A stretch of DNA of 64,000 nucleotides from Dictyostelium discoideum (GCA_000004695.1 CM000155.2:2944001-3008000), one strand, 5' to 3'; shown: positions 4,897 through 64,000, counted from the stretch's first letter. The notes: generated by a model from the letters alone, not told the origin. Numbers and translations: made by a program.

Positions 4897-6768
4897 CAAA
4901 AATTGAAATTAATGGTAGTACTACTATACCCTTTGAGATCAAAAGAGGAGTTAAACAAGGAGATCCACTATCACCCACCCTGTTCGTCCTTGTAATAGAG
5001 GCTTTAGCTAGAAAAATTTTACAAGATGACCGAATTACTGGCCTTCCTCTAAACAACAGCAACCACAGAGAGAAATTCCAAAGCTTTGCAGACGACTCGG
5101 CTTCAATGGTCCCAGACTCTCAACAACTTGAATTAGTACTACAACACTTCAATTCGTTTTGCAAAGCCACTTCCTCAAAACTAAACATCGACAAATCTTC
5201 ATCAATTCTTATAGGCAACCCAGACAATACCAACCAAAGAATTCCAATATCTACAAATCCAGAAAGATACTTGGGATACTTCTTCACAGGCAAAGGGATA
5301 ACAAGAAAAATGCCAGAAATATTAAACACAATAAGATCATCCTTAGTACTATGGAAAACCACTGACTCAACAATCAAAACCAAAACCAACATCCTCAAAG
5401 CATTCGCACTCTCTAAATTAACCTACTATTCATATGTAGAGAAATTTAAGGAAGAGGAATTAAACCAAATCAATAAATTAGTCGAATGGTTTTTATCGGC
5501 ACCAAACAACAAAAATGCTAGTGGATTTCAAGTTATTAATTTAATGAGAACCAAAAGAGCAAGATACCCACTAAAAGTAGGAGGCTGGAACATTTGGAAT
5601 ATAGAATTGAGACAACTGGCGCAGAAACTTTGGATCATAAACCAATTCATCCTAGCACTAGAAACCAAACAAACAAACTCATCTCATTACAAAAGCTGGG
5701 AATATCAGATCCAAAAAAACAAATTCACATCCAGATACCTAAAAGAAAACTTAGACGAATGGAACAAAATAAGAATAAAAAAAGCAATCTTCAACAATAA
5801 TCTCACATCCATAAAAAACGAAAATGGACAACCACTTTCACTGGCAGAATGGTATACCACAATTCAAGACCAAAATCCAACCATCCCTAAAACGGAATTC
5901 CAATCATCTCTAAACTTAAGAGGCTACAGCTATAATCAACTCTTCAACAACATACTGAAGATAAAAGACCATAAAACAAGAGACACAATGTTTAGATTCC
6001 ATGCCAGATGCCTTCCAATAAACTACCTTCACAACAAACAATGCCCACTCTGCAAAGAAGATATGAGCAAAGACCCATACGGTCACCTGTTCTTCTCATG
6101 CAAGAAAACAAAACAATTCATAAAAATAAATAAACTCAAAAATTTCATCTATATTACCACAGGCAAAGGTAAAAACTGGCACCATACAAGAATTAGGCAA
6201 AATAACAATTTCATTAATAGAATAACTCCAAAATTATCACCGACAGCCAAAAAAGATCAAGAAGTGAATGCAGATTACGCCAACCACAGATTCCACAAAG
6301 AATACTTTGAATGGAACTATAAAGCAATAGACTATGATCTAACCAGATCATTCGCATATAGAAACCTAATGGCCCTTATCCTCCACAACATTTGGATTTG
6401 GATTTGCAATCAAATATACAGTGAAGATCCTTTAACAGATGAATCACTATCATACAGCTCCCTTCTAAAGAAATGGCACAAATTGGCCACTCTAGAATAC
6501 ATCAAAAAAGCAAAAGATCTGAAAAACTTATCAGCAAAAGACCATAATAACTTCAAAGATCCTAAGATCCTTCTCACTTCAACGATCAAGCTAAGAAAAA
6601 CAAAAGCTAATTACTATTGTATTCCAGAATCATCTCTCCCAAATATTATATCTTTTGATCAATTCATATGATTAAAATAACCCTTCAGCTTAAATGATAA
6701 GCCTTTAAATAAATATTAAATAAAACTCGTATTAACACAGATGGACATATATCAATCTTGTTAATCCA

Positions 6769-6800
<32 letters not shown>
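4897..6800 (+). mobile_element. Non-LTR (LINE-like, tRNA-gene-associated TRE-type) retrotransposon, 3' portion with ORF2 RT/C-terminal region and poly(A) tail
   Basis: ORF 4897..6671 has RT motifs (GVKQGDPLSPTLF, FADD as the YxDD-type motif), a C-terminal Cys-rich CPLCKEDMSKDPYGHLFFSC motif, and a 3' UTR ending in a 27-nt A run at 6774-6800. The same sequence recurs as a rearranged fragment at 9821-10382. Confidence 0.85.
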
Positions 6801-7995
6801 TTGTATTAATAATTTCCAAGCCCTTAGAGATTTACCAATTTGATTTATTTTAAATGAATTAACAGGAAAGTGAATCGATGAAAACTCTCCAGGTGTTTCA
6901 TTTTGAGAAATCATTTAATTTAAAAAAAAAAAAAAATATAATTGTTGGGCTTGTTTTCATTCTTTTTAAAAATATCATTATTACTAAAATCACCCATAAA
7001 TACACCATATAAACCTTATTTTCTTTTAAATTTATATCGAGTTATCAATAATTGATCATTTTTTTAACGAGATCCATTTAGGTATGTTATTTTTAGAATT
7101 TTAAAAATTATTTTTTTTTAAAAAAAAAAAACCAAAACAATCATAATTTAATATTAAAACTTATAAATAAAAACACTAAAAACACAAAAATTATGAATAA
7201 AAATAAAAATAGAAAAAAACAAATATAGATTTAAAATTCCAGTAACCATGGTAATTTATTAACCCGGATTAAAATATTATAATTGGGGATATTACATTTG
7301 GAAAATCTAAAAATTAATACCATTTTGAAAATTTACAAAAAAAAAAAAATAAAAATAGAATTAATCCCTGGTATTAATAAATAATAAAAAATTAAAAAAT
7401 AAAAATAAAAAATAATATTTTTTTAAAATAATGGGGATCATTATTTTTTTAATAAAAAAAAAGTGATTACCAATTTTAAAGAAAGAAACCAGGTTAAATA
7501 AATAATTAGTTTTTTTATTATCAAAGTTGAAAAATCTAAAATGACATTGAAAAGATATTATGATCTGGCCTATCACTTTTAATAATTTACTAAAATAGAA
7601 GATATTTTTTAACATGCGGCATAGGTTATTATAAAATTACAAAATGTCAGTAGTGGGCACAAAAATGAATAAAATTTAAATAAAATTTAAATAAAATTAA
7701 AATAAAAAAAATTAAAAAAATCTTGAAAAAAAAAAAAAAGATATTTTTCAAAAATTATAGGAATAATGGCTTTTCAAAAATAATTAATATGGTTAAAATA
7801 TCTAATTTTTCATTTTTTTTTTATTTTTTATTTTTTTTTATTTTTATTTTTTTTTTTAGATTAAAAAATATCTGATTTTATTAATTTTGATTATTTTTAT
7901 TTTTATCCTGGTATTTCTTTTTTTTTTAAAATAAAAACAAAATTTTTTTTTTTTTTTATTTTTTAATATTATATTTATTTTTGTATTTGTAAAAA

Positions 7996-9079
7996 ATGAG
8001 ATTATTTCTTTTATTAATTACTTTTATTGCATTATTTGGTGCTATTAATGCATTTTCAGGTGTTGATATTTCACAAGGAAGTTCTGTAGGTGATTTCCAA
8101 TGTATGCTAAATCAAGGTTTTGAATTTGCAATCATTAGGTAATTATACAATTTATTAAAAAAAAATAAAACTTGTTTTAAAATATTTAAATATATTAATT
8201 TATAATTCAAAATTATAGAGGTTATATGGAAACTGGTCAAGTTGATCCAGAAGTTGTAAACAGTATTGCATGTGCACGTGAAGCTGGTGTCGAATATGTT
8301 GATACTTATCTTTTCCCATGTAAGAATGAAATTATTTTAATTTTAAACTTTATTTAAATGTGAATAATAAATTTATTTACAATTATTTTTTTAAAACATT
8401 TTCAGGTTTTAATTGTGGTAACCCACAAGATCAAGGTCCAGCTTTAGTATGTTTTGATTTTTTTATAATAATAATTATTTTATTTAGAAATATATATATA
8501 TTAAAAACCAATTCTAATATATAATTTAAAATTATTAATAGGTTAACTACTTAAGTGGATACAATGCTAACTATGGTATGGTATGGTTAGATATCGAATC
8601 ATCAGATTGGAGTGGTGATCAATCAGTATGTATCAATAATAGTAAACTTTAGAGTCTTTCATTTTTTTATTTAAACTACTAATATTAAAAATTTAATTTA
8701 AATAGGCAAATGTTGCATTTTTTGAAGGCTTAATTTCAGGTTTACAAAGTGTTGGTGCTCATATTGGTGTATACACCTCAGCTTCACAATGGATTCCAAT
8801 CATGGGTGGTTATACTGGTGGTTCCGAATTCCCACTTTGGGTAAGTTGTTTTTTTTTTTTTTTTAATTTTTTATTATTTTATTATAGATTTTATAGTATT
8901 ATTCGATATTAATAAAAACTCTTTCATTCAACAACAACAACAACAATTAGTATGCCAATTGGGATGGAGTACAAAGTTTTGATGATTTTTCAGCATTTGG
9001 TGGTTGGAGCACTCCAGCAATTAAACAATATAATGATGGTGGTAGCAACTGTGGTGTTGGTTATGATTTTAATTGGTGA
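7996..9079 (+). CDS. GH25 (Entamoeba/Chalaropsis-type) lysozyme with signal peptide; 6 exons: 7996..8138, 8219..8319, 8406..8446, 8542..8625, 8706..8840, 8951..9079
   Basis: MRLFLLLITFIALFGAINA signal peptide, then GVDISQGSSVGDFQCMLNQGFEFAIIRGYMETGQVD...VWLDIESSDW...GVYTSASQWIPIMGG...PLWYANWDG...GGWSTPAIKQYN, which fits the GH25 pattern. All junctions are GT..AG. Summed exon length is 633 nt (210 aa + stop) and in frame. Confidence 0.8.
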
Positions 9080-9775
9080 GTATTGAAAAAAAAAAAAAAA
9101 GATAAAAAAAAGATTAAAAATTTAAACAAATACTAACCATTTTATTATTCTAATTTGAAAACCAGGTATCCAAATTAATATTTTAATTTATATTTAATCA
9201 GATTGGTTAAAAATTTAAAATAAATATGTTAAATGGTTTTTATACAAGCATAAATATATTTTTTTATGTTTTAAATATCCTATTTTTAAAAAAAGATAAA
9301 TTGGTGGAATTATTATTGAACTTTTTTTTTTTTGTTGTTGTTGAGTAGTTTATGTTAACCTCATGATCCTTCTTTATATTTGGTGGGATTATAGGTTTAA
9401 TTCTTTTTTTTTTTTTTTTTTTTTTTATATTTGATCATTTTAATAAAAAAAAATTAATGCATTAATCAAATGATTTTTTTTTAAAGTTGATTGCAAATCC
9501 ATATCCATATCTGGTGAAATATCATTACTATCAAGTTTTTATATGAGAAATGTGATAATCTATAGCCTTGTAACACCATATGAAGTGAGGTTTATGAAAT
9601 CTTATATGAATGTAGTCAATGTTGATTTCATGGTCTTTCTTCATATTAGGAGGTATAATTGGTGTGATTTTGTTTGTTGTTTGTTGTTTATGATTGTTCC
9701 GCCTGTTAATTTGAAGATGAATCCTGTTAATTTGGTATTGTTAATATATGATTTGGGAGCACTTGTTCTGAAATA

Positions 9776-9777
<2 letters not shown>

Positions 9778-9823
<46 letters not shown>

Positions 9824-10418
9824 TGGATTAACAAGATTGATATATGTCCATCTGTGTTAATACGAGTTTTATTTAATATTTATTTAAAGGCTTATCATTT
9901 AAGCTGAAGGGTTATTTTAATCATATGAATTGATCAAAAGATATAATATTTGGGAGAGATGATTCTGGAATACAATAGTAATTAGCTGTTGTTTTTCTTA
10001 TCTTGATCGTTGAAGTGAGAAGGATCTTAGGATCTTTGAAGTTATTATGGTCTTTTGCTGATAAGTTTTTCAGATCTTTTGCTTTTTTGATGTATTCTAG
10101 AGTGGCCAATTTGTGCCATTTCTTTAGAAGGGAGCTGTATGATAGTGATTCATCTGTTAAAGGATCTTCACTGTATATTCAGAATTCCAATATCTACAAA
10201 TCCAGAAAGATACTTGGGATACTTCTTCACAGGCAAAGGGATAACAAGAAAAATACCAGAAATATTAAACACAATAAGATCATCCTTAGTACTATGGAAA
10301 ACCACTGACTCAACAATCAAAACCAAAACCAACATCCTCAAAGCATTCGCACTCTCTAAATTAACCTACTATTCATATGTAGTATATTGTATTTCAGAAC
10401 GGAAAAATATAACTTTGC
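9778..10418 (-). mobile_element. Rearranged 5'-truncated TRE retrotransposon fragment (inverted 3' end with poly(A) joined to a forward internal segment), inserted downstream of tRNA-Lys
   Basis: 9778-9818 is a 41-nt T run, which is poly(A) on the minus strand. 9821-10178 is the reverse complement of element positions 6415-6773. 10180-10382 is in forward orientation and matches 5222-5440. 10383-10400 is an inverted copy of the left-flank target GTTCTGAAATACAATATA. The second duplicate copy lacks all of this. Confidence 0.8.
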
Positions 10419-10488
10419 AGGTTAGTTTTCTTAATTTTATTATTTGTATGGTAAAGTCATTTGGGTCCTTTTACAATATCTTCATAGC

Positions 10489-10500
10489 CGGAGTCGAACA
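10489..10500 (-). promoter_or_regulatory. Downstream B-box-like element (ex-B box) of tRNA-Lys copy 1
   Basis: Minus-strand TGTTCGACTCC lies ~35 bp 3' of the tRNA end and matches the GGTTCGANTCC B-box consensus, as described for Dictyostelium tRNA genes. Confidence 0.6.
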
Positions 10501-10532
10501 TGCGATCTCAACTATACTCAGTAAAAATAATT

Positions 10533-10605
10533 CGCCCAACGGGGGGCTCGAACCCCCGACCACCAGATTAAGAGTCTGGCGCTCTACCGACTGAGCTAGC
10601 CGGGC
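10533..10605 (-). tRNA. tRNA-Lys (anticodon CUU)
   Basis: Minus strand reads GCCCGGCTAGCTCAGTCGGTAGAGCGCCAGACTCTTAATCTGGTGGTCGGGGGTTCGAGCCCCCCGTTGGGCG. This gives a cloverleaf with A box TAGCTCAGTCGG, a CTT anticodon loop, B box GGTTCGAGCC, and a T run just 3' of the gene. It is near-identical to metazoan tRNA-Lys-CTT. Confidence 0.92.
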
Positions 10606-11898
10606 ATTTTTATGAATTTTCAATTAAAATACTGGTATACGTAATAAATTTACTCCAATTGAAAAAAGATGAGTTTACAGGTGAAGCAATTTATTTTATC
10701 CAAAAAAAAAAGGTCAAATAATTATCAATTTAATACACAAAAAATAAATAGTTTATTGTTGTCTCTTTCTTTTGAAATTAATAAAATATTTTAATTTAAG
10801 AGTTTTTATTTCAGATTTTTTGTTCAATTGCACAGAACAGAGATTTAAAATTGTGGTGTGGCAAATAAAAAAAAAAATTATGAGAAAATAGATTATAATA
10901 GCTTTTATTAAATTACACTTATTTATACATTGATATTTAAATAGAAAATCGATTTAATTTTAATTTTATGAGAATAATAATTTCAAATAACTAATCCTCC
11001 ATTTGGTTTTTGAAAAACTTCTAAATGTACAGAGTTTGAAGTGGGCTGAGTATTTAAATTTACAACACTTTTTGATTGATCTTTTTTTGTATTGATAAAA
11101 CTTGTTGTTTTAACTGATTTATTTTTTGCCAAACAATCTAACAAATTTTTAAATCAATATGTTAGAAAATAAATAAAATAAATTTTTGAAAAAAATAACT
11201 TAATTAGTTTACACACATACCGTAAATCATTTTTTAATAAATTTTTTAAATAAATAAAAAAATAAATAAATTATATAAATAAAATAAAATATAATAAAAT
11301 AAAATAAATAATTAAAAAACTAGTTTAATAAATAAATATTTTTTAAAAAATAGATTAAAAAAATTGTAAATAAATTTTTAAAAAATGAATAAAAAAAAAA
11401 AACAGAAAATTGAATTTAAATATTTTATTCTTTTATTTTTGTATTTTTTTAATTTTATAATTTTTTTTAATTGTTTATTTTATAAAATAATGAAAATATT
11501 AATTTAATATCCATATTTGTACTTTAAGATTATTATTTATAAATCTTGTGATTTTGTTTATTTAAATAATTATTTCAAAGAATTATAATATGAGTTTTTA
11601 AAATTAAGGCAATTATAGTACACTTTTACATATAATTATACAATAAATATTTTAATTTTTTATTTTAAAAAAAAAAAATATTTAAAAATAAATTAAAAAA
11701 AAAAAATAACCACTCTTACTATTTGTTTTTATTATAATAATAATCGAATTTTATTAATTTTGTTTTTATTTTAATATTTTGCTCTATATTGAATTTCAAA
11801 TTCCATACGTCCTTCATTGTTTTTTTTTTTTTACACAGAATAATAACTGATTAAGATTTTTTTTGTTTATTATTTTTAAAAAAAAAAAAAAGAAACAA

Positions 11899-11998
11899 NN
11901 NNNNNNNNNNNNNNNNNNNNNNNNNNNNNNNNNNNNNNNNNNNNNNNNNNNNNNNNNNNNNNNNNNNNNNNNNNNNNNNNNNNNNNNNNNNNNNNNNN
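11899..11998. other. Assembly gap (100 N) between the two tandem duplicate copies
   Basis: Run of N. Confidence 1.
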
Positions 11999-12043
11999 AT
12001 ATTAATAAAAACTCTTTCATTCAACAACAACAACAACAATTAG

Positions 12044-12172
12044 TATGCCAATTGGGATGGAGTACAAAGTTTTGATGATTTTTCAGCATTTGGTGGTTGG
12101 AGCACTCCAGCAATTAAACAATATAATGATGGTGGTAGCAACTGTGGTGTTGGTTATGATTTTAATTGGTGA
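12044..12172 (+). pseudogene. Duplicated terminal exon (exon 6) of the GH25 lysozyme gene, with no upstream exons in this copy
   Basis: Identical acceptor context and coding sequence YANWDGVQSFDDFSAFGGWSTPAIKQYNDGGSNCGVGYDFNW, then stop. Exons 1-5 are absent before it (the gap precedes it). Confidence 0.6.
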
Positions 12173-12952
12173 GTATTGAAAAAAAAAAAAAAAGATAAAA
12201 AAAAGATTAAAAATTTAAACAAATACTAACCATTTTATTATTCTAATTTGAAAACCAGGTATCCAAATTAATATTTTAATTTATATTTAATCAGATTGGT
12301 TAAAAATTTAAAATAAATATGTTAAATGGTTTTTATACAAGCATAAATATATTTTTTTATGTTTTAAATATCCTATTTTTAAAAAAAGATAAATTGGTGG
12401 AATTATTATTGAACTTTTTTTTTTTTGTTGTTGTTGAGTAGTTTATGTTAACCTCATGATCCTTCTTTATATTTGGTGGGATTATAGGTTTAATTCTTTT
12501 TTTTTTTTTTTTTTTTTTTATATTTGATCATTTTAATAAAAAAAAATTAATGCATTAATCAAATGATTTTTTTTTAAAGTTGATTGCAAATCCATATCCA
12601 TATCTGGTGAAATATCATTACTATCAAGTTTTTATATGAGAAATGTGATAATCTATAGCCTTGTAACACCATATGAAGTGAGGTTTATGAAATCTTATAT
12701 GAATGTAGTCAATGTTGATTTCATGGTCTTTCTTCATATTAGGAGGTATAATTGGTGTGATTTTGTTTGTTGTTTGTTGTTTATGATTGTTCCGCCTGTT
12801 AATTTGAAGATGAATCCTGTTAATTTGGTATTGTTAATATATGATTTGGGAGCACTTGTTCTGAAATACAATATACTTTGCAGGTTAGTTTTCTTAATTT
12901 TATTATTTGTATGGTAAAGTCATTTGGGTCCTTTTACAATATCTTCATAGCC

Positions 12953-12963
12953 GGAGTCGAACA
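12953..12963 (-). promoter_or_regulatory. ex-B box of tRNA-Lys copy 2
   Basis: Same TGTTCGACTCC element as in copy 1. Confidence 0.6.
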
Positions 12964-12995
12964 TGCGATCTCAACTATACTCAGTAAAAATAATT

Positions 12996-13068
12996 CGCCC
13001 AACGGGGGGCTCGAACCCCCGACCACCAGATTAAGAGTCTGGCGCTCTACCGACTGAGCTAGCCGGGC
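12996..13068 (-). tRNA. tRNA-Lys (anticodon CUU), duplicate copy
   Basis: Sequence identical to 10533-10605. Confidence 0.92.
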
Positions 13069-14399
13069 ATTTTTATGAATTTTCAATTAAAATACTGGTA
13101 TACGTAATAAATTTACTCCAATTGAAAAAAGATGAGTTTACAGGTGAAGCAATTTATTTTATCCAAAAAAAAAAGGTCAAATAATTATCAATTTAATACA
13201 CAAAAAATAAATAGTTTATTGTTGTCTCTTTCTTTTGAAATTAATAAAATATTTTAATTTAAGAGTTTTTATTTCAGATTTTTTGTTCAATTGCACAGAA
13301 CAGAGATTTAAAATTGTGGTGTGGCAAATAAAAAAAAAAATTATGAGAAAATAGATTATAATAGCTTTTATTAAATTACACTTATTTATACATTGATATT
13401 TAAATAGAAAATCGATTTAATTTTAATTTTATGAGAATAATAATTTCAAATAACTAATCCTCCATTTGGTTTTTGAAAAACTTCTAAATGTACAGAGTTT
13501 GAAGTGGGCTGAGTATTTAAATTTACAACACTTTTTGATTGATCTTTTTTTGTATTGATAAAACTTGTTGTTTTAACTGATTTATTTTTTGCCAAACAAT
13601 CTAACAAATTTTTAAATCAATATGTTAGAAAATAAATAAAATAAATTTTTGAAAAAAATAACTTAATTAGTTTACACACATACCGTAAATCATTTTTTAA
13701 TAAATTTTTTAAATAAATAAAAAAATAAATAAATTATATAAATAAAATAAAATATAATAAAATAAAATAAATAATTAAAAAACTAGTTTAATAAATAAAT
13801 ATTTTTTAAAAAATAGATTAAAAAAATTGTAAATAAATTTTTAAAAAATGAATAAAAAAAAAAAACAGAAAATTGAATTTAAATATTTTATTCTTTTATT
13901 TTTGTATTTTTTTAATTTTATAATTTTTTTTAATTGTTTATTTTATAAAATAATGAAAATATTAATTTAATATCCATATTTGTACTTTAAGATTATTATT
14001 TATAAATCTTGTGATTTTGTTTATTTAAATAATTATTTCAAAGAATTATAATATGAGTTTTTAAAATTAAGGCAATTATAGTACACTTTTACATATAATT
14101 ATACAATAAATATTTTAATTTTTTATTTTAAAAAAAAAAAATATTTAAAAATAAATTAAAAAAAAAAAATAACCACTCTTACTATTTGTTTTTATTATAA
14201 TAATAATCGAATTTTATTAATTTTGTTTTTATTTTAATATTTTGCTCTATATTGAATTTCAAATTCCATACGTCCTTCATTGTTTTTTTTTTTTTACACA
14301 GAATAATAACTGATTAAGATTTTTTTTGTTTATTATTTTTAAAAAAAAAAAAAAGAAACAAGTGGAGATTAAATATATTTTGTGTATTAACACTTTTAA

Positions 14400-41081: not shown

Positions 41082-41395
41082 TATAAAATATTATTATTAT
41101 TATTATTTTAAAATAATAATAGAGAATATTAAAAAAGGACCAGTGGAAAAAGAAAGACAAGAAAGAATTTTATTTGGTACCGTACAAAGAAAATAAAAGG
41201 AAGCACAACACATTTGAATAATATTTGTAAAATAAAATATAAAGATAATTTTTTAATTTAAAATCCCTATGGTTCTTTACTAAATTTTCTTCATAATCCC
41301 ATATTCCATTTTTATTATTCAATTGAGAATTATAATTTATCCGAGATTTATATTTCCAGCTTATGTCAGTATTTAAAAAAGAAATTCATATAAAT

Positions 41396-41468
41396 GCCCG
41401 GCTAGCTCAGTCGGTAGAGCGCCAGACTCTTAATCTGGTGGTCGGGGGTTCGAGCCCCCCGTTGGGCG
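41396..41468 (+). tRNA. tRNA-Lys (anticodon CUU), third copy
   Basis: Same 73-nt sequence as the two minus-strand copies. Followed by AAATTTTT. Confidence 0.92.
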
Positions 41469-41500
41469 AAATTTTTAACTCGATTCCTACAAGGATCGCA

Positions 41501-46986: not shown

Positions 46987-49900
46987 TTATTTATTATTAT
47001 TATTTTTATCGATTTTTGATTTTAAAACATCAATATAATTATTATAAGACTTCATCATTAAATCCTGTATCTTTTGATCAGCATCCAATCTTTGATTCTG
47101 AAGTTGTTCAATTTGCTGTAATAAATTATTTGAGGAAAATGGTTCATTACTACTACTACTATTATTATTATTATTATTATTAAAATAAAATGGTGAAGAT
47201 CTAATTGGTGTTGAATTTGCCGATCTTGATCTTGTTGTAGTATATTGGTGTTGTTGTTGTTGTTGTTGTTGTTGATGTAAATAATCTGATGATGAAAATG
47301 GTATTGATTGTTGATTATTATTATAATAACTTTGATATCTAATACTTGAAGTTGAAGAAGGATATTGGTAATAGGTATTATAATTATCATTTAATCTTAC
47401 TGGTGTTAATCTATTAGTATTAAATGCTATTGGTTGTTGCTGTTGTTGTTGTTGTTGTTGTTGGTATGGTGGTAATAAAACTGTAGTTGGTTTAATTGGT
47501 GTTGTTTTCTTTAAAAAGTTTTCAATTTCATTTAAATCTTTTTCATTTTCTTTTAATATTTTATCAATTTCATCATCATCATGATCATCGTCATCTTTCT
47601 CTCCATCTTTACTTCTTAATAATACTCTTTTCTTTGATGCAGATGATGTATTTTGTTGTTTTTGTTGTTGTTTTTTAGTATTTGAAGAGGTAGTAGTACT
47701 AGTAGTAGTAGTAGTATTATTATTATTATTTGAATTATAAAATAATCGTGGCTCAAATTCATCATCATGATTATCAAATAATTCATCATTTGTATATCTA
47801 CTATAACCACTATTAACAGTTGTTGTATTTGAAGTACCTGAAGAATATCTTCCATTTGGTGTAAAAGATTGTTTCTTTCTCTTTGAAGATGGTGGATTTG
47901 ATATTAATTTTGGTGGTGATGGAGGTGGTGAAATATTTACATTATTACTATTACTATTATTATTATTGATATTATTACTGTTATTATTACTGTTATTATT
48001 ATTATTTGATAATTGTTGTTGTAATTGTAATAATTGTTTTTGTAAATATTCTTTTTCATTTGTAATTTGTGTAATTGAATTTTGTAAATTTAGCATTGTT
48101 AATTCTTGTTGATGTTGTTGTTGTTGTTGTTGATTTTGATCATATTGTTGTTGATTTTGATGTTGTTCATCAATTAAAACAACATTTTGATGTTGTTGTT
48201 GTTGGTCAATATTTAAATTAATTTTATTTAATTTATTAATTAAATCTAAATTTTCAAATTGAATTAATTCTAATTGATGTTTATGATCTTCATTTGATTG
48301 ATAAAGATTATCATATTCTTGTTTAATATTTGAAAGTAATGATTCAGTCCTTTGTTTCTCTAAATCAATATAATTTTGTTTCTCTTTAATTAAATCCATT
48401 AAATATTGTTGATGTTTTTCAACTTTATCCAATTGTTTATCAACCTCTACTAGTATGGATTGAATATCTTCCTTTAGATAACGATCTTGATATTCTCTAT
48501 CCTTTTCAACGATATCTAAATATTCATTGACTTGTTTCATCTTTTCAGTATACTGATCACGAGATCTAGTTAAATCATCGAATAAACTCTTATTCTCAAT
48601 ACCAAGTATATCCAACTCTTGATTCTTTATTTGTACAACCTCTTTAATCTCTTTAACTTTAACTCTACTCTTTTCTTCAACAATTAATTCATTAATTATT
48701 GTCTCTAACCATGTTAAATTCTTTTGTAAATTTAAAATATTTTCATTACTATCATCATTATTATCATCTTGATTTTCATCTTGATTTTCATCATTATCAT
48801 TATCATTAATTTTTTGTTCTTTTAATAATTGATTTAATTTCATTTGAACGAAATCAGTATTTTTAGTATTAATAATATTTGAAGATAATAAAGAATTTAG
48901 TAGTGAATGAATATCATTATTAATAGTATGAATGAATTGTGATAGATGAGAATTTGATTGTTTCAATTCAATCAATTGATCATTGTATAGATTTGATTGT
49001 GATTGTGATTGACTATTCAATTGTTCAAGATTACTAATTTCTTGACGATAAGTTTCAAGTAACTGTTCAAATTGTTGTTGTTGTTCACTATATTGTTGTT
49101 GTTGTTCAATAGATAATTGTAATTGATGTTGTTCGAATTCCATCTGATATTGAGTTTTAATTTGTTGATTATATTTCTCAATCTCTTTTTCAATCTCTTT
49201 TTCAAATTGTTTCTCAAATTTCAATTTTAATTCCTTTTCTAATGATTCTAAATCTTTCTTTTCATTTGATAAATTTGATCGTAATTGATTTCTCTCTTTT
49301 TCAAATTCAATTTCAAATTCTTTTTCAATTATTAATTTTTGATTCTCCAATTCTTTTTCAAAATCTTGTCTTTGTCTCTCCAATTCAATTTCAAATTCTT
49401 GTCTTTGTTGATCAAATTGTAATTTAAAGTCTTGTTCAAATTCTTGTTGATAAATTTCAAATTCTTCTTTTGTAATAAATTCTTCTTTTTCTTCTTCTTC
49501 CTCTTCCTCTTCTTGTTCTGATTCACTTGAATTTAATATTATTGAATCTTGATCATCACCACTATGTAATATAATTGAATCATTATCATCTTCATTTGTA
49601 TTTGAACTATTATTAGTATTAGTATTATTATCATCATTTAATATAATTTCATCATCTAATTCAATGATTGAATTTCTAATATTATCTTTTTCTTCATCAT
49701 CTTCATCAGGGTGATATTGAACACTATCATTATCAGAATTATCAATACTTTCTTCACCATGATCATCTTCTGATTCACTTGAATTAATTATCACTTCATC
49801 ATCTAATTCACCAAATTCATCACAAAATTCTTCATCTTCTTCTTCTTCTTCTTCTTCTTCATCTTCATCTTCATCTTCTTGGTTATTATTATTGTTAATT

Positions 49901-52717
49901 GAATTGTTTGCTGTAGTTGTAGTTGTAGTTGTTGTTGATGTTGTATTTTTATTATTATTATTAGTATTAGTATTATTTGTTGTTGTTGTTGAATTATCAG
50001 ATTTTGAATTTTCAAATAATTGATTACTATTTATATTATAATCAGGTTGAATTGGTGAAGAAATATTATCTTTAATGAATTGATATTGTTCATCATTTAA
50101 AGATAAAGTTTTAGTATGAATACCATCATTTGAATAGATTACATTTTGATTGAAATGAACTTGTTTCTTTTTTAATGATGATAATCTTTGATCTGGATCA
50201 TAATCTGAATTGATAGATAATGAATCTTTACTAATACCAATTTCATTTAACATTTGCTTATAGTGTGGTGAAATATCGTATAATTGAACCAAAACATCTT
50301 TAGCAATACAAAGATCTCTTTTAATCTGTTGGAAATTCTCTAAAATAGATTCATAATCTTTAATAACAATCTCTTGTCTATCTCTATCATCAATTAAACT
50401 TTGATTTGAATTCATCACTGTAACATATTCAAATTGTAATTTTCTCATATCTGCAATCTCTTTTAATTTTCTTTCATACCTTTTCTTTAATTCTTCATAT
50501 GAAATATCATTTTCATTTGGACTTGAATAAATTGATTGTTGTTGAGTTTGTTGTTGTTGTTGTTGTTGAGTTTGTTGAGTTTGTTGTTGTTTTTGTTTAG
50601 ATTCACCATTTGAAATTATACCACTACCATCAGAATTTAAAGATAAATTATTATCAGTTATATTTTGAATGATCATATCCAATGAAGAAGATGATGAATT
50701 CTCTCTATGATGAGTTTTTCTTTTAATTGGACTACCAGTTATAGAAGAAGAGGTTGCATTACTTAATGCAGTGGCTTGTTGTTGTTGTAATTGTTGTAAT
50801 TGAGTGATTTGTAATTGTAATTCTTTAATTTGATGTTGTAAATCATTAATTTTCTCAATCTTTTCATCATTCTCTTTAATTAATAATTGAATTTCATTTG
50901 AAAATTGTTGATTCTCTTGTTTCGATAATTCTAATAATTCATTAACCATATCTAATTCTTCATTATTATTATTATTATTATTAGTGGTAGTGGTAGTAGT
51001 AGTAGTATTAATTTGTTTATCAATTAATTCTTGTTCTTTTTGTTTCAATTGTTGATTTAATTGTTTAATTTGTTCTAATAGTTGATTAATTGTTGATTGT
51101 TTTAATTGTAAATCATTCATTGATTCTTTATATTGTTGATCTAATGATTGATATAGATTCATAATTTCATCAGTTTGATTGAATGATTGTTGATATTCTT
51201 CCAATTGTAATTGATATTTATTTATGGTTTCTTTATTTTCTAGTTTCGATTGTTGATATTCATTTTCAAGTTTTTCAAGTTCACCTTTAATTTCAATTTC
51301 CTTTTGTTCATATTGATTATAATTCTCACAAAGTTCATTATAATTTGTTAACAACTCTTGATAACTTGATGATAATTGATTGATTTGATTTGATTTCTTT
51401 GTATTATCAACTTCTTGTTTCTTTAATTCTTGAATTGTTTCATCCAATTTCTTTAAATTCTCTTTTTCAATTAATTTCAATTCATTAATTTGTTGATTGA
51501 ATTTATTATTAATTTCTTCTAGTTCTTTAATTTTATTAATTTGTTGTTGTTCATTATTACTATTATTATTATTATTTTGTTGTTGCTCTTGTTTTAATTG
51601 TTCATTTTCAGATTTAATTTGTTGATATAATTTTTCAAATTCTTTAAAGTCTGAAGTTAAAGATTCCAATTCCTCAATTTGAGTATTTTGTTCCTTTATG
51701 ATTTGTTCAGATTCAAATAATTGTGAATTTAATACTTCAATTTCATTTGATAATTGATCGATTTGTTCTTGATTCTTTGAAATACTTTCATTATGAATGA
51801 TTTGTAATTCTTGAAGTTTTTGTTTAATTAAAGTTTTTTTTTTTTTTAATAATTCATTCGACTCAACCAATTCAATAGTATAATTTCTTTCTTTTTCTAA
51901 ATGTTCTTCTAATTGTTTAATTTGAATTAATTGTTTATTATATTCAATTTCAAAATTATTATTATTTTCATCTAATTTTTCATTTTCTTTATTATTATTA
52001 TTATTATTATTATTATCAATATTTAATGATTTTAATTCTAAATTATCTTTTTCTAATAAATCAATTTTATTTTGTTTATTATTTAATTCTTCTTCGAAAT
52101 GTTGTTTTGTATAATTTAATTGTTTTTCTAATCTTTCATTCTTTGTTTTGTATTCTATTGATTTGGATTTCTCTTCTTTTAATTCCTCTATTAATTTGGT
52201 TTTACTTTGATTTAATTCCATTATTGTTTCAAAATTACTCTATTAAAAAAAATAAAATAAAAAATAAAAAATAAAATAAAATAAAATAAAATAAAATAAT
52301 AATGATGATGATGATGATGATTTTATTAATAAAATGAATCAAAATTTCAAAAATGTGTATGTATTGAATATTATGAAAATATTTACTTGATTTTGTTTTA
52401 ATTCTTTTTCTGTTAAATTTTTAATTTCATTTTCTAATTTTTTATTATTCTCAAGTAAAATTTGATATTCGCTAGTTATATTTGTAGTTGTTGTAGTTGT
52501 AGTAATTGTTGATGATGATGAAGATGATTCAATATTATTATTATTATCATTATTTAATTTTTTATTTAATTCTAAAATTGTTTCATTTGCAATTTCAACA
52601 TCGATTTTTTCTTTATCTAATTTTAATTTTAATATTTCAATTTCTTCTTCTAAATCTTTAATTAAACTATTATTTTTATTATTATTACTATTATTACTAT
52701 TTATATTATTATTATCA

Positions 52718-52748
<31 letters not shown>

Positions 52749-53461
52749 CATCATCATTGCCTTGTTCTAATTGTTGAATTTTATTTTTTAATAAATCATT
52801 TTCAATCTTTAATTCATTTTCAATTAATTTAAAATCATCCAATAATGAATTGGATTCTTTTAATTTTTGTTCCAATGTTAATATTTTAACTAACATTGAA
52901 TCATTATCTTTAATATTCCTATTGTTTATATCATCCTCCTCTTCTTCCCCTTCCCCTATTATACCATTCCCATTCCCATTACTATTACTATTATTATTAT
53001 TATCGCTATGTAATGAACCATTAATACCATTTATAATTGGTGATGATGATGATGATGTCATTGATGGTGAATTTTGTTGTTGTTGGTGTTGTTGCTTTTT
53101 TATTAAATTTACAATATCTTCATTTTCTTTTAATTTTAATAATGTTTCATTTAATCGATTTGTATTTGATTCTTGAGAATCTTCTATTCTAGATTTCTCT
53201 TCCTCTAAAATTGATACTCGAGATGCTAAAATACCATTTTGTTTACGTTCTTCTACTAATTTCTTTTGAGTTTGTATTATACCCTTTTGCATATCCTCTA
53301 CATGTTTTTTTGAATCTTCTTTCTCTTTCATCATCTGTTTCACCGTTTCAATAAGTTGAGAGTTTTTCTCTCTCTCTGCATTAAAAAAATCAATGGTTTT
53401 TTGATGTAATTCCTTTTCTTTAGAAATCTCTTCTAATAAATAAATTTTCTCTTCTGCTGAT

Positions 53462-53466
<5 letters not shown>
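46987..53466 (-). CDS. Very large coiled-coil protein with poly-N/poly-Q tracts (2110 aa); 2 exons 53466..52387 and 52239..46987
   Basis: Track ORFs 52339..53466 and 46987..52221 join through a 147-bp intron (donor CAA|GTAAAT, acceptor TTAATAG), in frame as ...KQNQ|SNFETIMELNQ.... The sequence has heptad-like E/K/Q/L-rich segments throughout and no catalytic domain. Confidence 0.7.
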
Positions 53467-56313: not shown

Positions 56314-57296
56314 ATGTCAGCAGCAGAAGTTATTAAATTAGTCGTTATTGGTGATGGTGCTGTAGGGTATGCCATTCAAAATTATTAAACAAAACAAAAA
56401 AACAAAGCAAATGAATATTTTCTAACCAAACTTTTTTTTTTTTTATTAAAAATAGTAAAACTTGTTTATTGATTAGTTATGCAAACAATCGTTTCCCAGA
56501 AGATTATATTCCAACTGTATTCGATAATTATGTTGTAAATCTTACAGCAGGTGATAGAAACATAGAACTCGGACTTTGGGATACTGCAGGTCAAGAAGAG
56601 TACGATAAATTAAGACCATTAAGTTATGCAAATGCAAATGTATTTTTAATTTGCTTCTCAATTACCAATCCAGTTTCATTTGAAAATGTTTACACAAAAG
56701 TATTTATCATCAACAACAACAACAACAACAATAATAACAATAATAATAATAATAACAACAAATATATAGGATTTGGTTTTCGTAGCAGTTAGATAATTTT
56801 GGTTGGTGTTTTCAGGTAGCAGTTTTTAGTTTAGAAATTAAATCAAAAAAAAAAAAAGAAAATGAAAAGAAAATACCACCAAAAAAAAAACAAAAAACTT
56901 CAACCACGATAAACCAATTTCCTACACTTCTTTTTTGATTAAAAGTTGGGTACTAACTTTTTTTTTTTTTTTATTTTTTTTTTTTTATTATTATTTTATT
57001 ATTAAAATTTTTAGTGGTACCCAGAAGTTATGCATTTTTGCCCAGAAGTTCCACAAATTTTAGTTGGTACTAAATTAGATACACGTGACGATAGAGGTGT
57101 TTTAGATAAACTTCAACAAACTGGTCATAAACCAATTACAACCGAACAAGGTAACGATTTAGCCAGAAGAATTAAAGCCATTAAATATATGGAATGTTCT
57201 GCCAAAACCTCACAAAATCTCAAACAAGTCTTTGATGAAGCCATTAAATCTGTTTTGTTTATCAAAAAAAAGAAATCCAAGTGTATTGTTATGTAA
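56314..57296 (+). CDS. Rac-family Rho GTPase (192 aa, CAAX end CIVM; possibly racC); 3 exons 56314..56366, 56456..56699, 57015..57296
   Basis: [18 protein letters not shown]|[25 protein letters not shown]...[17 protein letters not shown]...|WYPEV...LVGTKLD...CSAKT...KSKCIVM. Donors are GG|GTATGC and AAA|GTATTT, and acceptors are AATAG and TTTTAG. A TTCTAAC branch motif is present. Confidence 0.9.
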
Positions 57297-61985: not shown

Positions 61986-62119
61986 ATTATAATAAATAAT
62001 AAATAAAAAAATGGTATAAAAACAAACTTTTTTTTTTTTTTAAAATCATTATCAAATACATTATAAAAATAAATATAAAAGTTATCTTTTTTCAAAATAA
62101 TTTAAAATTGGAATAAAAA

Positions 62120-62433
62120 ATGAACAAGGTATAATAATAATTTGAAAAAAACAAAAAAAATTAATTATTTATTAATTATTAATTTTTTTAATATAATAAA
62201 AGTTATTAAATTTATTAGGATTCTTAGTCGTATTAGTTTTTTGTGTTTTTACTGGTTCAAATGCTGAAGGTTTGGGTTCTTGTTCAAGTTGGCATGTAGC
62301 AAGATCTGGCTATACCTGTTGGGATATGGCATCTACATGTGGTGTTTCACTTCAACAATTCATGGGCACTAATAGCTTGTCCTCATATGATTGTGACTAC
62401 ATCCAAATTGGTAGAAAATATTGTTGTAATTAA
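62120..62433 (+). CDS. Small secreted cysteine-rich peptide, paralog A (79 aa; exons 62120..62128 and 62203..62433)
   Basis: MNK|LLNLLGFLVVLVFCVFTGSNA signal peptide, then EGLGSCSSWHVARSGYTCWDMASTCGVSLQQFMGTNSLSSYDCDYIQIGRKYCCN (6 Cys). 74-bp intron with GTATAA donor and AAAAG acceptor. Confidence 0.6.
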
Positions 62434-63120
62434 TTTGGTATTTGAAAAAAATAGAAATATAATATTATCATATTATAACTATTATTATTAAATAAATATT
62501 ATTTTTAAGAATTTTTCTATCTATTAATTTTAAAAATTTTAATTTTATTTTTTTTACCCTTTGTTAAATAATATATAATAAATTATGTTTTATATAATTA
62601 GTTGTGAATTTTTTTATATAATTTGAAAAAAAAACTTTAAAGTTTTAAGTGGTTCCTTTTTTTTTTTTTATTAAAATAAAATAATTATTAAACATCTAGT
62701 TGAAAAATAAATGATAGTATTAAAAAGATAAAATTAGAATAAATTAAATTATTTACAAAAATAGTAAATAAAATCTTTATTTATTAGGAAATACCATTTC
62801 AAACAATAGCTACTATTATATTAGTGGTATTAAAATTTGTGGTAATTTTATTTTCCCAAATAACCAAAAAAAAAAAAAAATAATAACCACACCCATAATT
62901 AAATATATATATTTTTTTCTTAACTATCTGGGGATTTTAATTTTCTTTTTTTTTTTATTTGTATTTCAAAACTACCATTTAAAATATAATAAAAAAAAAA
63001 AAAAAAAGAAAAAAAATAGTATAAATAAAAAATTATAAAAAAAAAAAAAAAAATAAATCATTTTCCAAATTAAAATTCAATTTTAACATTTTTAATAAAT
63101 CAATAAAATTCTTTCCAATA

Positions 63121-63427
63121 ATGTGCAAGGTATAGTACTCTTTTAATATTTGTATATTAATATATATTATTAACTATAATTATTTTCCTGAAACAGTTAT
63201 TAAACTTATTAGGATTAGTAGTTGTTTTCCTTTTATGTGTTTTCACTGGTTCAAATGCTGAAGGTATGGGTTCTTGTTCAAGTTGGCATGTAGCAAGATC
63301 TGGTTATACCTGTTGGGATATGGCATCTACATGTGGTGTTTCACTTCAACAATTCATGGCAACAAATGGCTTAAGTTCAAATGACTGTAATTACATCCAA
63401 ATTGGTAGAAAATATTGTTGTAATTAA
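63121..63427 (+). CDS. Small secreted cysteine-rich peptide, paralog B (79 aa; exons 63121..63129 and 63197..63427)
   Basis: MCK|LLNLLGLVVVFLLCVFTGSNA, then EGMGSCSSWHVARSGYTCWDMASTCGVSLQQFMATNGLSSNDCNYIQIGRKYCCN. ~90% identical to paralog A, with the same exon structure, 1 kb downstream. Confidence 0.6.
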
Positions 63428-64000
63428 ATCAAAGTTTGAAATATTTATCATAAATCAATCATTAATTTATCATAATACCAATTTAAATTTTTCCATAAAC
63501 TGTTTTAAATAAATATTTTTCAAATTTTTTTATCTAATTCCCAATTTTTTTTATTATAGATTAATCTGTTTATTATTTATTTCTTTTAATGGATAGTTTA
63601 TTTATGAATTAATTTTGAAAGTAGGGATATTACTCAATTTTGATCTCAATTATCAAAAAAGAATTATAATTTTAAAATATAGTGTTATAAATTTTATTTT
63701 TATTTTTTTTTTTTTTTTATAAATTCAGTTTTAAAGGAGAATATGTTTGAAAGTAGTAGTGAATATGAATAAAATAAACTTTTTTAAGTTAATTTTCTCA
63801 ATTTTATTATTTCTCTAAGGAAATTGTTTTAGATCTTTTTAATTGCCCAAATCTTTTGAGTTTATTTTAAAATTTTTGGCTTCTTTTTTTATTCTTGAAG
63901 GGCTTTTAAGTATCACTTACTAACTTTGAGTGGTTTGATTGGTTTGGTTCGTATGATTCGGGCACGACCCTAGGTGGGTGGCGTTGATGATTGATACTGA

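Follow-up and report, generated by a model that had tools for sequence, protein, structure and literature searches.

We found that two tandem genes, A and B, which lie in the 64,000-nucleotide stretch of Dictyostelium discoideum AX4 DNA that we analyzed (the window), encode small proteins whose six-cysteine module is a LysM carbohydrate-binding domain (Pfam PF01476 / CBM50) by profile, fold, and cysteine signature. We propose, with a probability of about 0.7, that A and B are secreted or phagosome-lumen lectins of 6 kDa for GlcNAc-containing cell-wall glycans. The original prediction, made from the DNA sequence, took the pair for a possible family of secreted signaling or antimicrobial 6-Cys peptides. 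We confirmed what it observed, and its interpretation is partly supported. Both the genes and their LysM domain were already known; the prediction had the gene anatomy right, and what it describes is of an ordinary kind.

Genes A and B are both on the + strand, and direct reading and scripted reassembly placed their start codons 1,001 bp apart (Table 1), in agreement with the predicted spacing of ~1 kb between paralogs. Each gene encodes a 79-residue precursor with a 55-residue, six-cysteine mature part. The proteins are 86% identical overall (BLASTP E = 2e-42). By direct count, 50 of 55 residues (91%) are identical in the mature part and 18 of 24 in the signal region. Both regions had been described as near-identical; the signal regions are similar rather than near-identical. 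The mature Cys pattern is C-x11-C-x6-C-x17-C-x9-CC in both genes, as expected for the predicted six-Cys domain of ~55 residues.

Table 1. Features of the tandem genes A and B (positions are counted from the first nucleotide of the window)
Feature	Position	Strand	Description
Possible core promoter, gene A	62015..62022	+	TATAAAAA motif 105 nt upstream of start codon, then T-run; weak candidate
Gene A exon 1	62120..62128	+	9-nt micro-exon ATGAACAAG, Met-Asn-Lys
Gene A intron	62129..62202	+	74 nt, GTATAA...AAAAG
Gene A exon 2	62203..62433	+	231 nt; stop TAA 62431-62433
Gene A exon 2, signal peptide remainder	62203-62265	+	residues 4-24
Gene A exon 2, mature part	62266-62430	+	residues 25-79
Gene A LysM core	62281..62427	+	Cys30 to Cys78, 49 aa, six Cys
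Possible polyadenylation signal, gene A	62491..62496	+	AATAAA, 58 nt past stop codon; candidate
Possible core promoter, gene B	63020..63027	+	TATAAATA motif 101 nt upstream of start codon; weak candidate
Gene B exon 1	63121..63129	+	9-nt micro-exon ATGTGCAAG, Met-Cys-Lys
Gene B intron	63130..63196	+	67 nt, GTATAG...AACAG
Gene B exon 2	63197..63427	+	231 nt; ends in stop TAA
Gene B exon 2, signal peptide remainder	63197-63259	+	
Gene B exon 2, mature part	63260-63424	+	residues 25-79
Gene B LysM core	63275..63421	+	Cys30 to Cys78; Pfam LysM 27.6 bits, signature match
Possible polyadenylation signal, gene B	63508..63513	+	AATAAA, 81 nt past stop codon; candidate

The frame of the mature domain stays open for 23 more codons upstream, through the hydrophobic core of the signal peptide, and this stretch contains no ATG. 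In gene A, an in-frame TAA (62197-62199) directly upstream of the acceptor region closes the frame. Because of this stop codon and the lack of an ATG in the open frame, splicing of the gene A micro-exon is necessary. We found that the product of gene A matches D. discoideum AX4 EAL60660.1 / XP_628992.1 / UniProt Q54BN7 exactly and that the product of gene B matches EAL60661.1 / XP_628993.1 / Q54BN6 exactly. Since the annotated AX4 proteins are identical to them, the spliced two-exon models are right, including the predicted 9-nt first exons (MNK and MCK). Both entries are on a 3,602,379-bp contig and carry the name "peptidoglycan-binding lysin domain." The prediction noted that neither gene was annotated in the ORF track; this is true of a plain ORF listing (just 53-aa ORFs appear there) and untrue of the public AX4 annotation, where both exact models are present. 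Two other readings were considered and rejected. Read without an intron, the open frame of gene A lacks an ATG, and that of gene B would begin at Met27 and drop the hydrophobic leader; an alternative gene A acceptor at 62218/62219 is out of frame.

In a DNA alignment of A and B, exon 2 and the exon 1/donor block (ATG..CAAG/GTATA) match, and the intron and flanks have diverged. The GC content is 34% in the coding sequences, 11 to 13% in the spacers and flanks, and ~22% in the whole window. Together with the poly-Asn/Gln ORFs and the short, AT-rich introns of the window, this composition is that of Dictyostelium. Upstream promoter-like motifs and AATAAA are expected often by chance in DNA this rich in AT (~11% GC). 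A tblastn search found no paralogs in the window besides A and B. There was no Rfam match at 58 to 64 kb, and thus the locus is not an RNA gene.

Elsewhere in the window, two tRNA-Lys(CTT) genes (10532-10606 and 12995-13069, both on the - strand) lie amid near-identical segmental repeats (5238-14361). The repeats pair 10406-11898 with 12870-14361 (99.9%, 1,493 nt), 8906-9777 with 11999-12870 (100%), and 10181-10382 with 5238-5439 (99.5%), and there is an inverted copy of 9792-10204 at 6393-6800 (97.8%). From their sequences, they look like a very recent tandem duplication of ~2.5 to 3 kb and/or fragments of a tRNA-gene-targeting retroelement. A third tRNA-Lys(CTT) gene is on the + strand (41395-41469). 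Two long ORFs on the - strand (46987-53466; 1,744 and 375 aa) may belong to a single gene as separate exons; they abound in Glu, Lys, Gln, and Asn and carry long poly-Q, poly-N, and acidic runs. An exon at 56469-56792 encodes a fragment of a Rho/Rac-type small GTPase (Pfam Ras, E = 2.7e-24), and the continuation of its ORF into a poly-Asn stretch is probably intron read-through. At 63900-64000, the GC content is markedly above that of the surrounding spacer (..GGGCACGACCCTAGGTGGGTGGCG..); this segment has no Rfam match and no copy elsewhere in the window and may represent the beginning of a gene or element that the window end truncates.

We assessed secretion with a signal-peptide rule applied by hand. 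Residues 1 to 24 have the features of a cleavable leader, as had been predicted: Lys as the third residue, a hydrophobic core of 16 residues (mean Kyte-Doolittle hydropathy of 2.9 over residues 4 to 19), and small residues at -3 and -1 of a putative site, ..(G/S)-S-N-A↓E... The motif (S/A/V)-x-A↓E is conserved across the family, and 8 of 9 members begin with MNK. On reading the C-terminus (...GRKYCCN), we found no hydrophobic tail, anchor, or retention motif. The mature products would have 55 residues, a mass of ~6.0 kDa, and pI values of 5.43 (A) and 6.78 (B). Consisting of little more than the domain itself, the members of this family are, to our knowledge, some of the smallest LysM proteins. 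We infer the cleavage of the signal peptide, the disulfide pairing, the ligand, the location, and the biological role of A and B.

The assignment to LysM comes from several kinds of comparison. Pfam PF01476 scored 22.1 bits for A and 27.6 bits for B against a gathering cutoff of 20.9, and the AX4 paralogs P0167 (21.8) and P0169 (22.1) were also above the cutoff. The scores of A and B are barely over the threshold, which several Dictyostelium firmibasis members do not reach. When PDB sequences were searched with a profile built from four mature domains, the matches were the LysM of fern chitinase A (5bum, E = 9e-5; 4pxv, E = 2e-4), with four of the six Cys aligned in 5bum and three in the shorter 4pxv alignment. 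In the AlphaFold model, a strand (residues 32 to 35), two helices (42 to 49 and 53 to 59), and a second strand (75 to 78) form a predicted beta-alpha-alpha-beta fold, the fold of LysM domains, which span ~45 to 50 residues. The model has pLDDT values of 84 to 91 over residues 31 to 79 and a short additional helix (64 to 68) within the alpha2-beta2 loop. The best Foldseek matches were again the fern domains (5ylg/4pxv/5bum; target-normalized TM score of 0.77 to 0.80, 30 to 31% identity), followed by bacterial, plant, and fungal LysM domains. LysM is the sole domain that Pfam detects in both proteins, and they contain no catalytic domain.

These results bear directly on the proposal of a novel secreted signaling or antimicrobial 6-Cys family unrelated to known domains. 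The proposal fits the small size of the proteins, their signal peptides and six Cys, and the tandem duplication of the genes. It is largely refuted by the LysM identity of the module; the genes were also already annotated, and we consider it very improbable. The acidic-to-neutral pI of the mature products argues against a cationic membrane-active peptide, so an antimicrobial peptide of the classical cationic type is unlikely; A and B differ from defensin-like cationic Cys-rich antimicrobial peptides both in charge and in having a LysM fold. A signaling role has small size as its sole support.

The spacing of the cysteines places the module in a known subclass. Akcapinar et al. (2015) defined a "fungal-specific" LysM class by the signature C-x(8,13)-C-x(15,17)-N-x6-C-x(8,10)-C, and the LysM of fern PrChi-A falls in this four-Cys class, with its disulfides shown experimentally (PMC4392113). 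If one additional Cys is permitted, all nine Dictyostelium proteins have the spacing of the class (11, 17, 6, and 9 residues); the strict [^C] form of the signature fails solely through the extra Cys (C49) in the second gap. Relative to the four-Cys class, the extra pair comprises C49 and C78, the latter being the final Cys of the C-terminal CC. By analogy with PrChi-A and Tal6, in which the first Cys of the four pairs with the last and the second with the third, the predicted bridges are C30-C77 and C42-C67, with C49-C78 as a probable third. The class was described as restricted to fungi, and D. discoideum is an amoebozoan. Because amoebozoan members occur, the name "fungal-specific" is too narrow, as the fern case had already shown. 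We also found a 6-Cys version with the same layout in a few metagenomic proteins (P0080/P0156, P0119, and P0144); another, P0109, looks alike on reading its sequence and was not picked up by the pattern search.

One LysM module is enough for binding, because a single 49-residue module of AtlA binds GlcNAc5 with a KD of about 12 μM (Mesnage et al. 2014; PMC4083421). LysM modules bind both chitin and peptidoglycan by recognizing GlcNAc-X-GlcNAc in the same way, and in AtlA the binding groove is flanked by the beta1-alpha1 and alpha2-beta2 loops (PMC4083421). In AtlA, T13, L14, and I39 matter most: mutation of T13 or I39 cut GlcNAc5 affinity 60- to 80-fold, and D12A cost ~6-fold (PMC4083421). We found that AtlA T13, I39, and N32 map to T41, I/V70, and N60, which are kept in the nine Dictyostelium members except that one has Ser for T41, and that the Asn of N-x-L is invariant across the nine. 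The position of AtlA L14 is a disulfide Cys in this family, as it is throughout the Cys-type LysMs. In every member, Tyr replaces the Asp of the canonical GDT (giving GYT), and by analogy with AtlA this replacement may alter binding affinity or specificity.

It has been proposed, in a single study, that chitin is favored when the residue equivalent to PrChi-A Y72 is aromatic and that the nonaromatic N15 at this position in AtlA accommodates MurNAc (PMC4083421). We found W, Y, or F at this position in every Dictyostelium member. Because this aromatic after the second Cys is invariant and the nearest relatives are of the chitinase type, the sequences favor chitin or chito-oligosaccharides over peptidoglycan as the ligand. 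The alternative is that A and B bind peptidoglycan on bacterial prey, marking or holding murein sacculi in phagosomes or scavenging muropeptides alongside lysozymes. The shared GlcNAc-X-GlcNAc recognition, the public name of both proteins, and the mainly bacterial diet of D. discoideum all fit it. So does a LysM gene, DDB0218607, that was reported as 32-fold higher in wild-type V12M2 than in axenic AX2, both grown on bacteria (PMC2443395); this gene is not tied to A/B or their paralogs. Against a peptidoglycan ligand, the closest relatives in both sequence and structure are the chitin-binding LysM domains of chitinases, the residue at the N15/Y72 position is in its chitin-type state, and the Cys-containing LysM class has been characterized on chitin ligands only. 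We therefore regard murein binding as unlikely.

Many small Cys-rich secreted proteins of Dictyostelium are developmental, and this counts toward a further reading in which A and B bind the organism's own glycans, for example, the N-glycan cores of slime-sheath, stalk, or spore-coat glycoproteins, as small developmental components of the extracellular matrix. In fungi, certain LysM proteins bind not only chitin but also the N-linked oligosaccharides on glycoproteins (PMC6449025). An own-glycan role has no support in the sequence, and A and B contain no repeats or matrix-type domains; we consider it improbable. Microbial cell-wall glycans are the targets that we prefer.

At least four family members, each of 79 aa, are annotated in AX4. 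The other two, Q54HI1 (DDB_G0289443) and Q55BK6 (DDB_G0271110), are on contigs of 5.13 and 8.48 Mb, respectively, and from their sizes we read the three contigs as chromosomes 6 (the A/B pair), 5, and 2. We found no experimental work on the four-member AX4 family in the literature by accession, gene ID, or product name. In D. firmibasis, five members are clustered on a single contig under neighboring gene numbers (RB653_008944 and 008946-008949; P0170, P0168, P0002, P0007, and P0003). One contig in D. firmibasis against three in D. discoideum means either that the cluster was dispersed in the latter or that it was assembled in the former. In an exhaustive profile search of 1.84 billion representatives, two proteins scored below 1e-30, both from Dictyostelium; the next-ranked matches were multi-LysM proteins, one of them from a chytrid fungus.

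The 49-aa core from Cys1 to Cys6 has no indels across the nine paralogs and orthologs, and all six Cys are kept in both species. In this core, A and B are 92% identical to each other and 76 to 80% identical to their likely D. firmibasis counterparts, 8947 and 8948, which are 90% identical to each other. These core identities point to either independent recent duplications or concerted evolution. Local duplication had been suggested for the pair, and this is borne out by the five-gene D. firmibasis cluster and by fused A+B models in other D. discoideum assemblies. One of these models, P0005, is a 161-aa mis-fusion of A and B, and thus the tandem pair is present in other strains too.

Two further fused models in other D. 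discoideum assemblies, P0006 and P0171 (140 aa), are at the DDB_G0289443 locus and do not represent A/B. In both, the DDB_G0289443 paralog is fused with another, divergent LysM-like unit (..FTDFIQTFQHYSYSCAEMSYYCRISLKSFL..GRKYCCN) in which the first Cys is missing. Their sequence hints at a further tandem member beside DDB_G0289443 that is absent among the AX4 proteins found.

Such mis-fusions by automated pipelines are what could suggest that A and B are annotation artefacts or decaying, unexpressed copies. For A versus B, we calculated a dS of 0.27 and a dN/dS of 0.29 overall and 0.22 in the mature part, and therefore both copies are under purifying selection. These values, the conservation of six Cys and of core length in nine genes from two species, and the conservation of the exon 1/donor block amid diverged flanks all speak against artefact or decay, which we find hardly credible.

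The LysM of fern chitinase A (Pteris ryukyuensis PrChi-A, 4pxv/5ylg; Equisetum arvense, 5bum) is the best match to the Dictyostelium domain in both sequence and structure. The two have in common four aligned intradomain Cys, the aromatic after the second Cys, and a QIGQ/QIGR strand. The Dictyostelium domain differs in its extra Cys pair (C49 and C78) and in having GYT in place of GDT/GDI. In the ferns, LysM accompanies the catalytic domain of a chitinase as an accessory module, whereas in Dictyostelium it is the whole mature protein. Members of the Akcapinar class, such as Trichoderma Tal6 and the subgroup C chitinases (PMC4392113), have the same four-Cys spacing and conserved Asn as the Dictyostelium proteins, and a disulfide-stabilized intradomain architecture is expected in both. 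In contrast to that class, the Dictyostelium proteins have an amoebozoan host, six Cys rather than four, one domain rather than arrays, and (T/V/A)N-x-L in place of the WNP motif.

Two groups of single-LysM proteins are similar in layout. Single-LysM fungal effectors (Zymoseptoria tritici Mg1LysM, 6q40; Rhizophagus RiSLM) share with the Dictyostelium proteins a signal peptide, a single LysM, the lack of a catalytic domain, and at least two disulfides, those of Dictyostelium being predicted. A and B fit the description of such effectors as secreted, LysM-only proteins, with secretion predicted by the signal-peptide rule. Mg1LysM forms ligand-independent dimers and undergoes chitin-induced polymerization, which is one way in which single-LysM proteins act (PMC7337405). 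The role of the fungal effectors, protecting the producer's own chitin wall or hiding chitin from a host, is unlikely in Dictyostelium because the producer is a wall-less amoeba during feeding. Plant LysMe proteins also have a signal peptide and exactly one LysM (Zhang et al. 2009). They are the smallest LysM proteins of their genomes, at 100 to 120 aa, and are intronless and described as plant specific (PMC2728734), whereas the Dictyostelium proteins have 79 aa, a micro-exon, and a LysM of the Cys-containing type. We concluded that A and B are not to be filed with either group, from which they differ in host, gene structure, LysM subtype, and probable role.

According to the model that we favor, each gene would be transcribed from its own promoter, and removal of an intron of 67 to 74 nt would join the 3-codon first exon to the gene body. 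The mRNA would then be translated into the 79-residue preprotein, of which residues 1 to 24 would serve as an ER signal peptide. Cleavage at the GSNA↓E site would free a 55-residue, ~6-kDa protein that is essentially one LysM module, cross-braced by the predicted disulfides C30-C77, C42-C67, and C49-C78. The mature protein would be exported or sent to the endo/phagosomal lumen. There, it would bind GlcNAc-X-GlcNAc stretches in microbial cell-wall glycans, with two loops flanking the binding groove: beta1-alpha1 (G39-Y40-T41-C42-W43) and alpha2-beta2 (D/N68-Y69-I70). Because there is no second domain, A and B would act through binding alone, by coating, tagging, sequestering, or cross-linking the glycan, possibly with ligand-induced oligomerization.

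The supposed unannotated peptide family is thus two catalogued LysM genes and is not a discovery to carry forward. What the genes do show is that the Cys-containing LysM type described as fungal specific is also present in Amoebozoa. A bolder idea, which we offer tentatively and think unlikely, is that these proteins are an amoebozoan counterpart of the single-LysM effectors: a Dictyostelium-restricted, tandemly expanding set of secreted, triple-disulfide 6-kDa lectins that bind chitin or murein. If this were true, a microbe-eating amoeba might use them to tag or immobilize its prey, whether fungi or bacteria, to blunt competing fungi, or to manage the bacteria that it carries, and the "fungal-specific" Cys-LysM class would be older than the fungi or would have been horizontally acquired.
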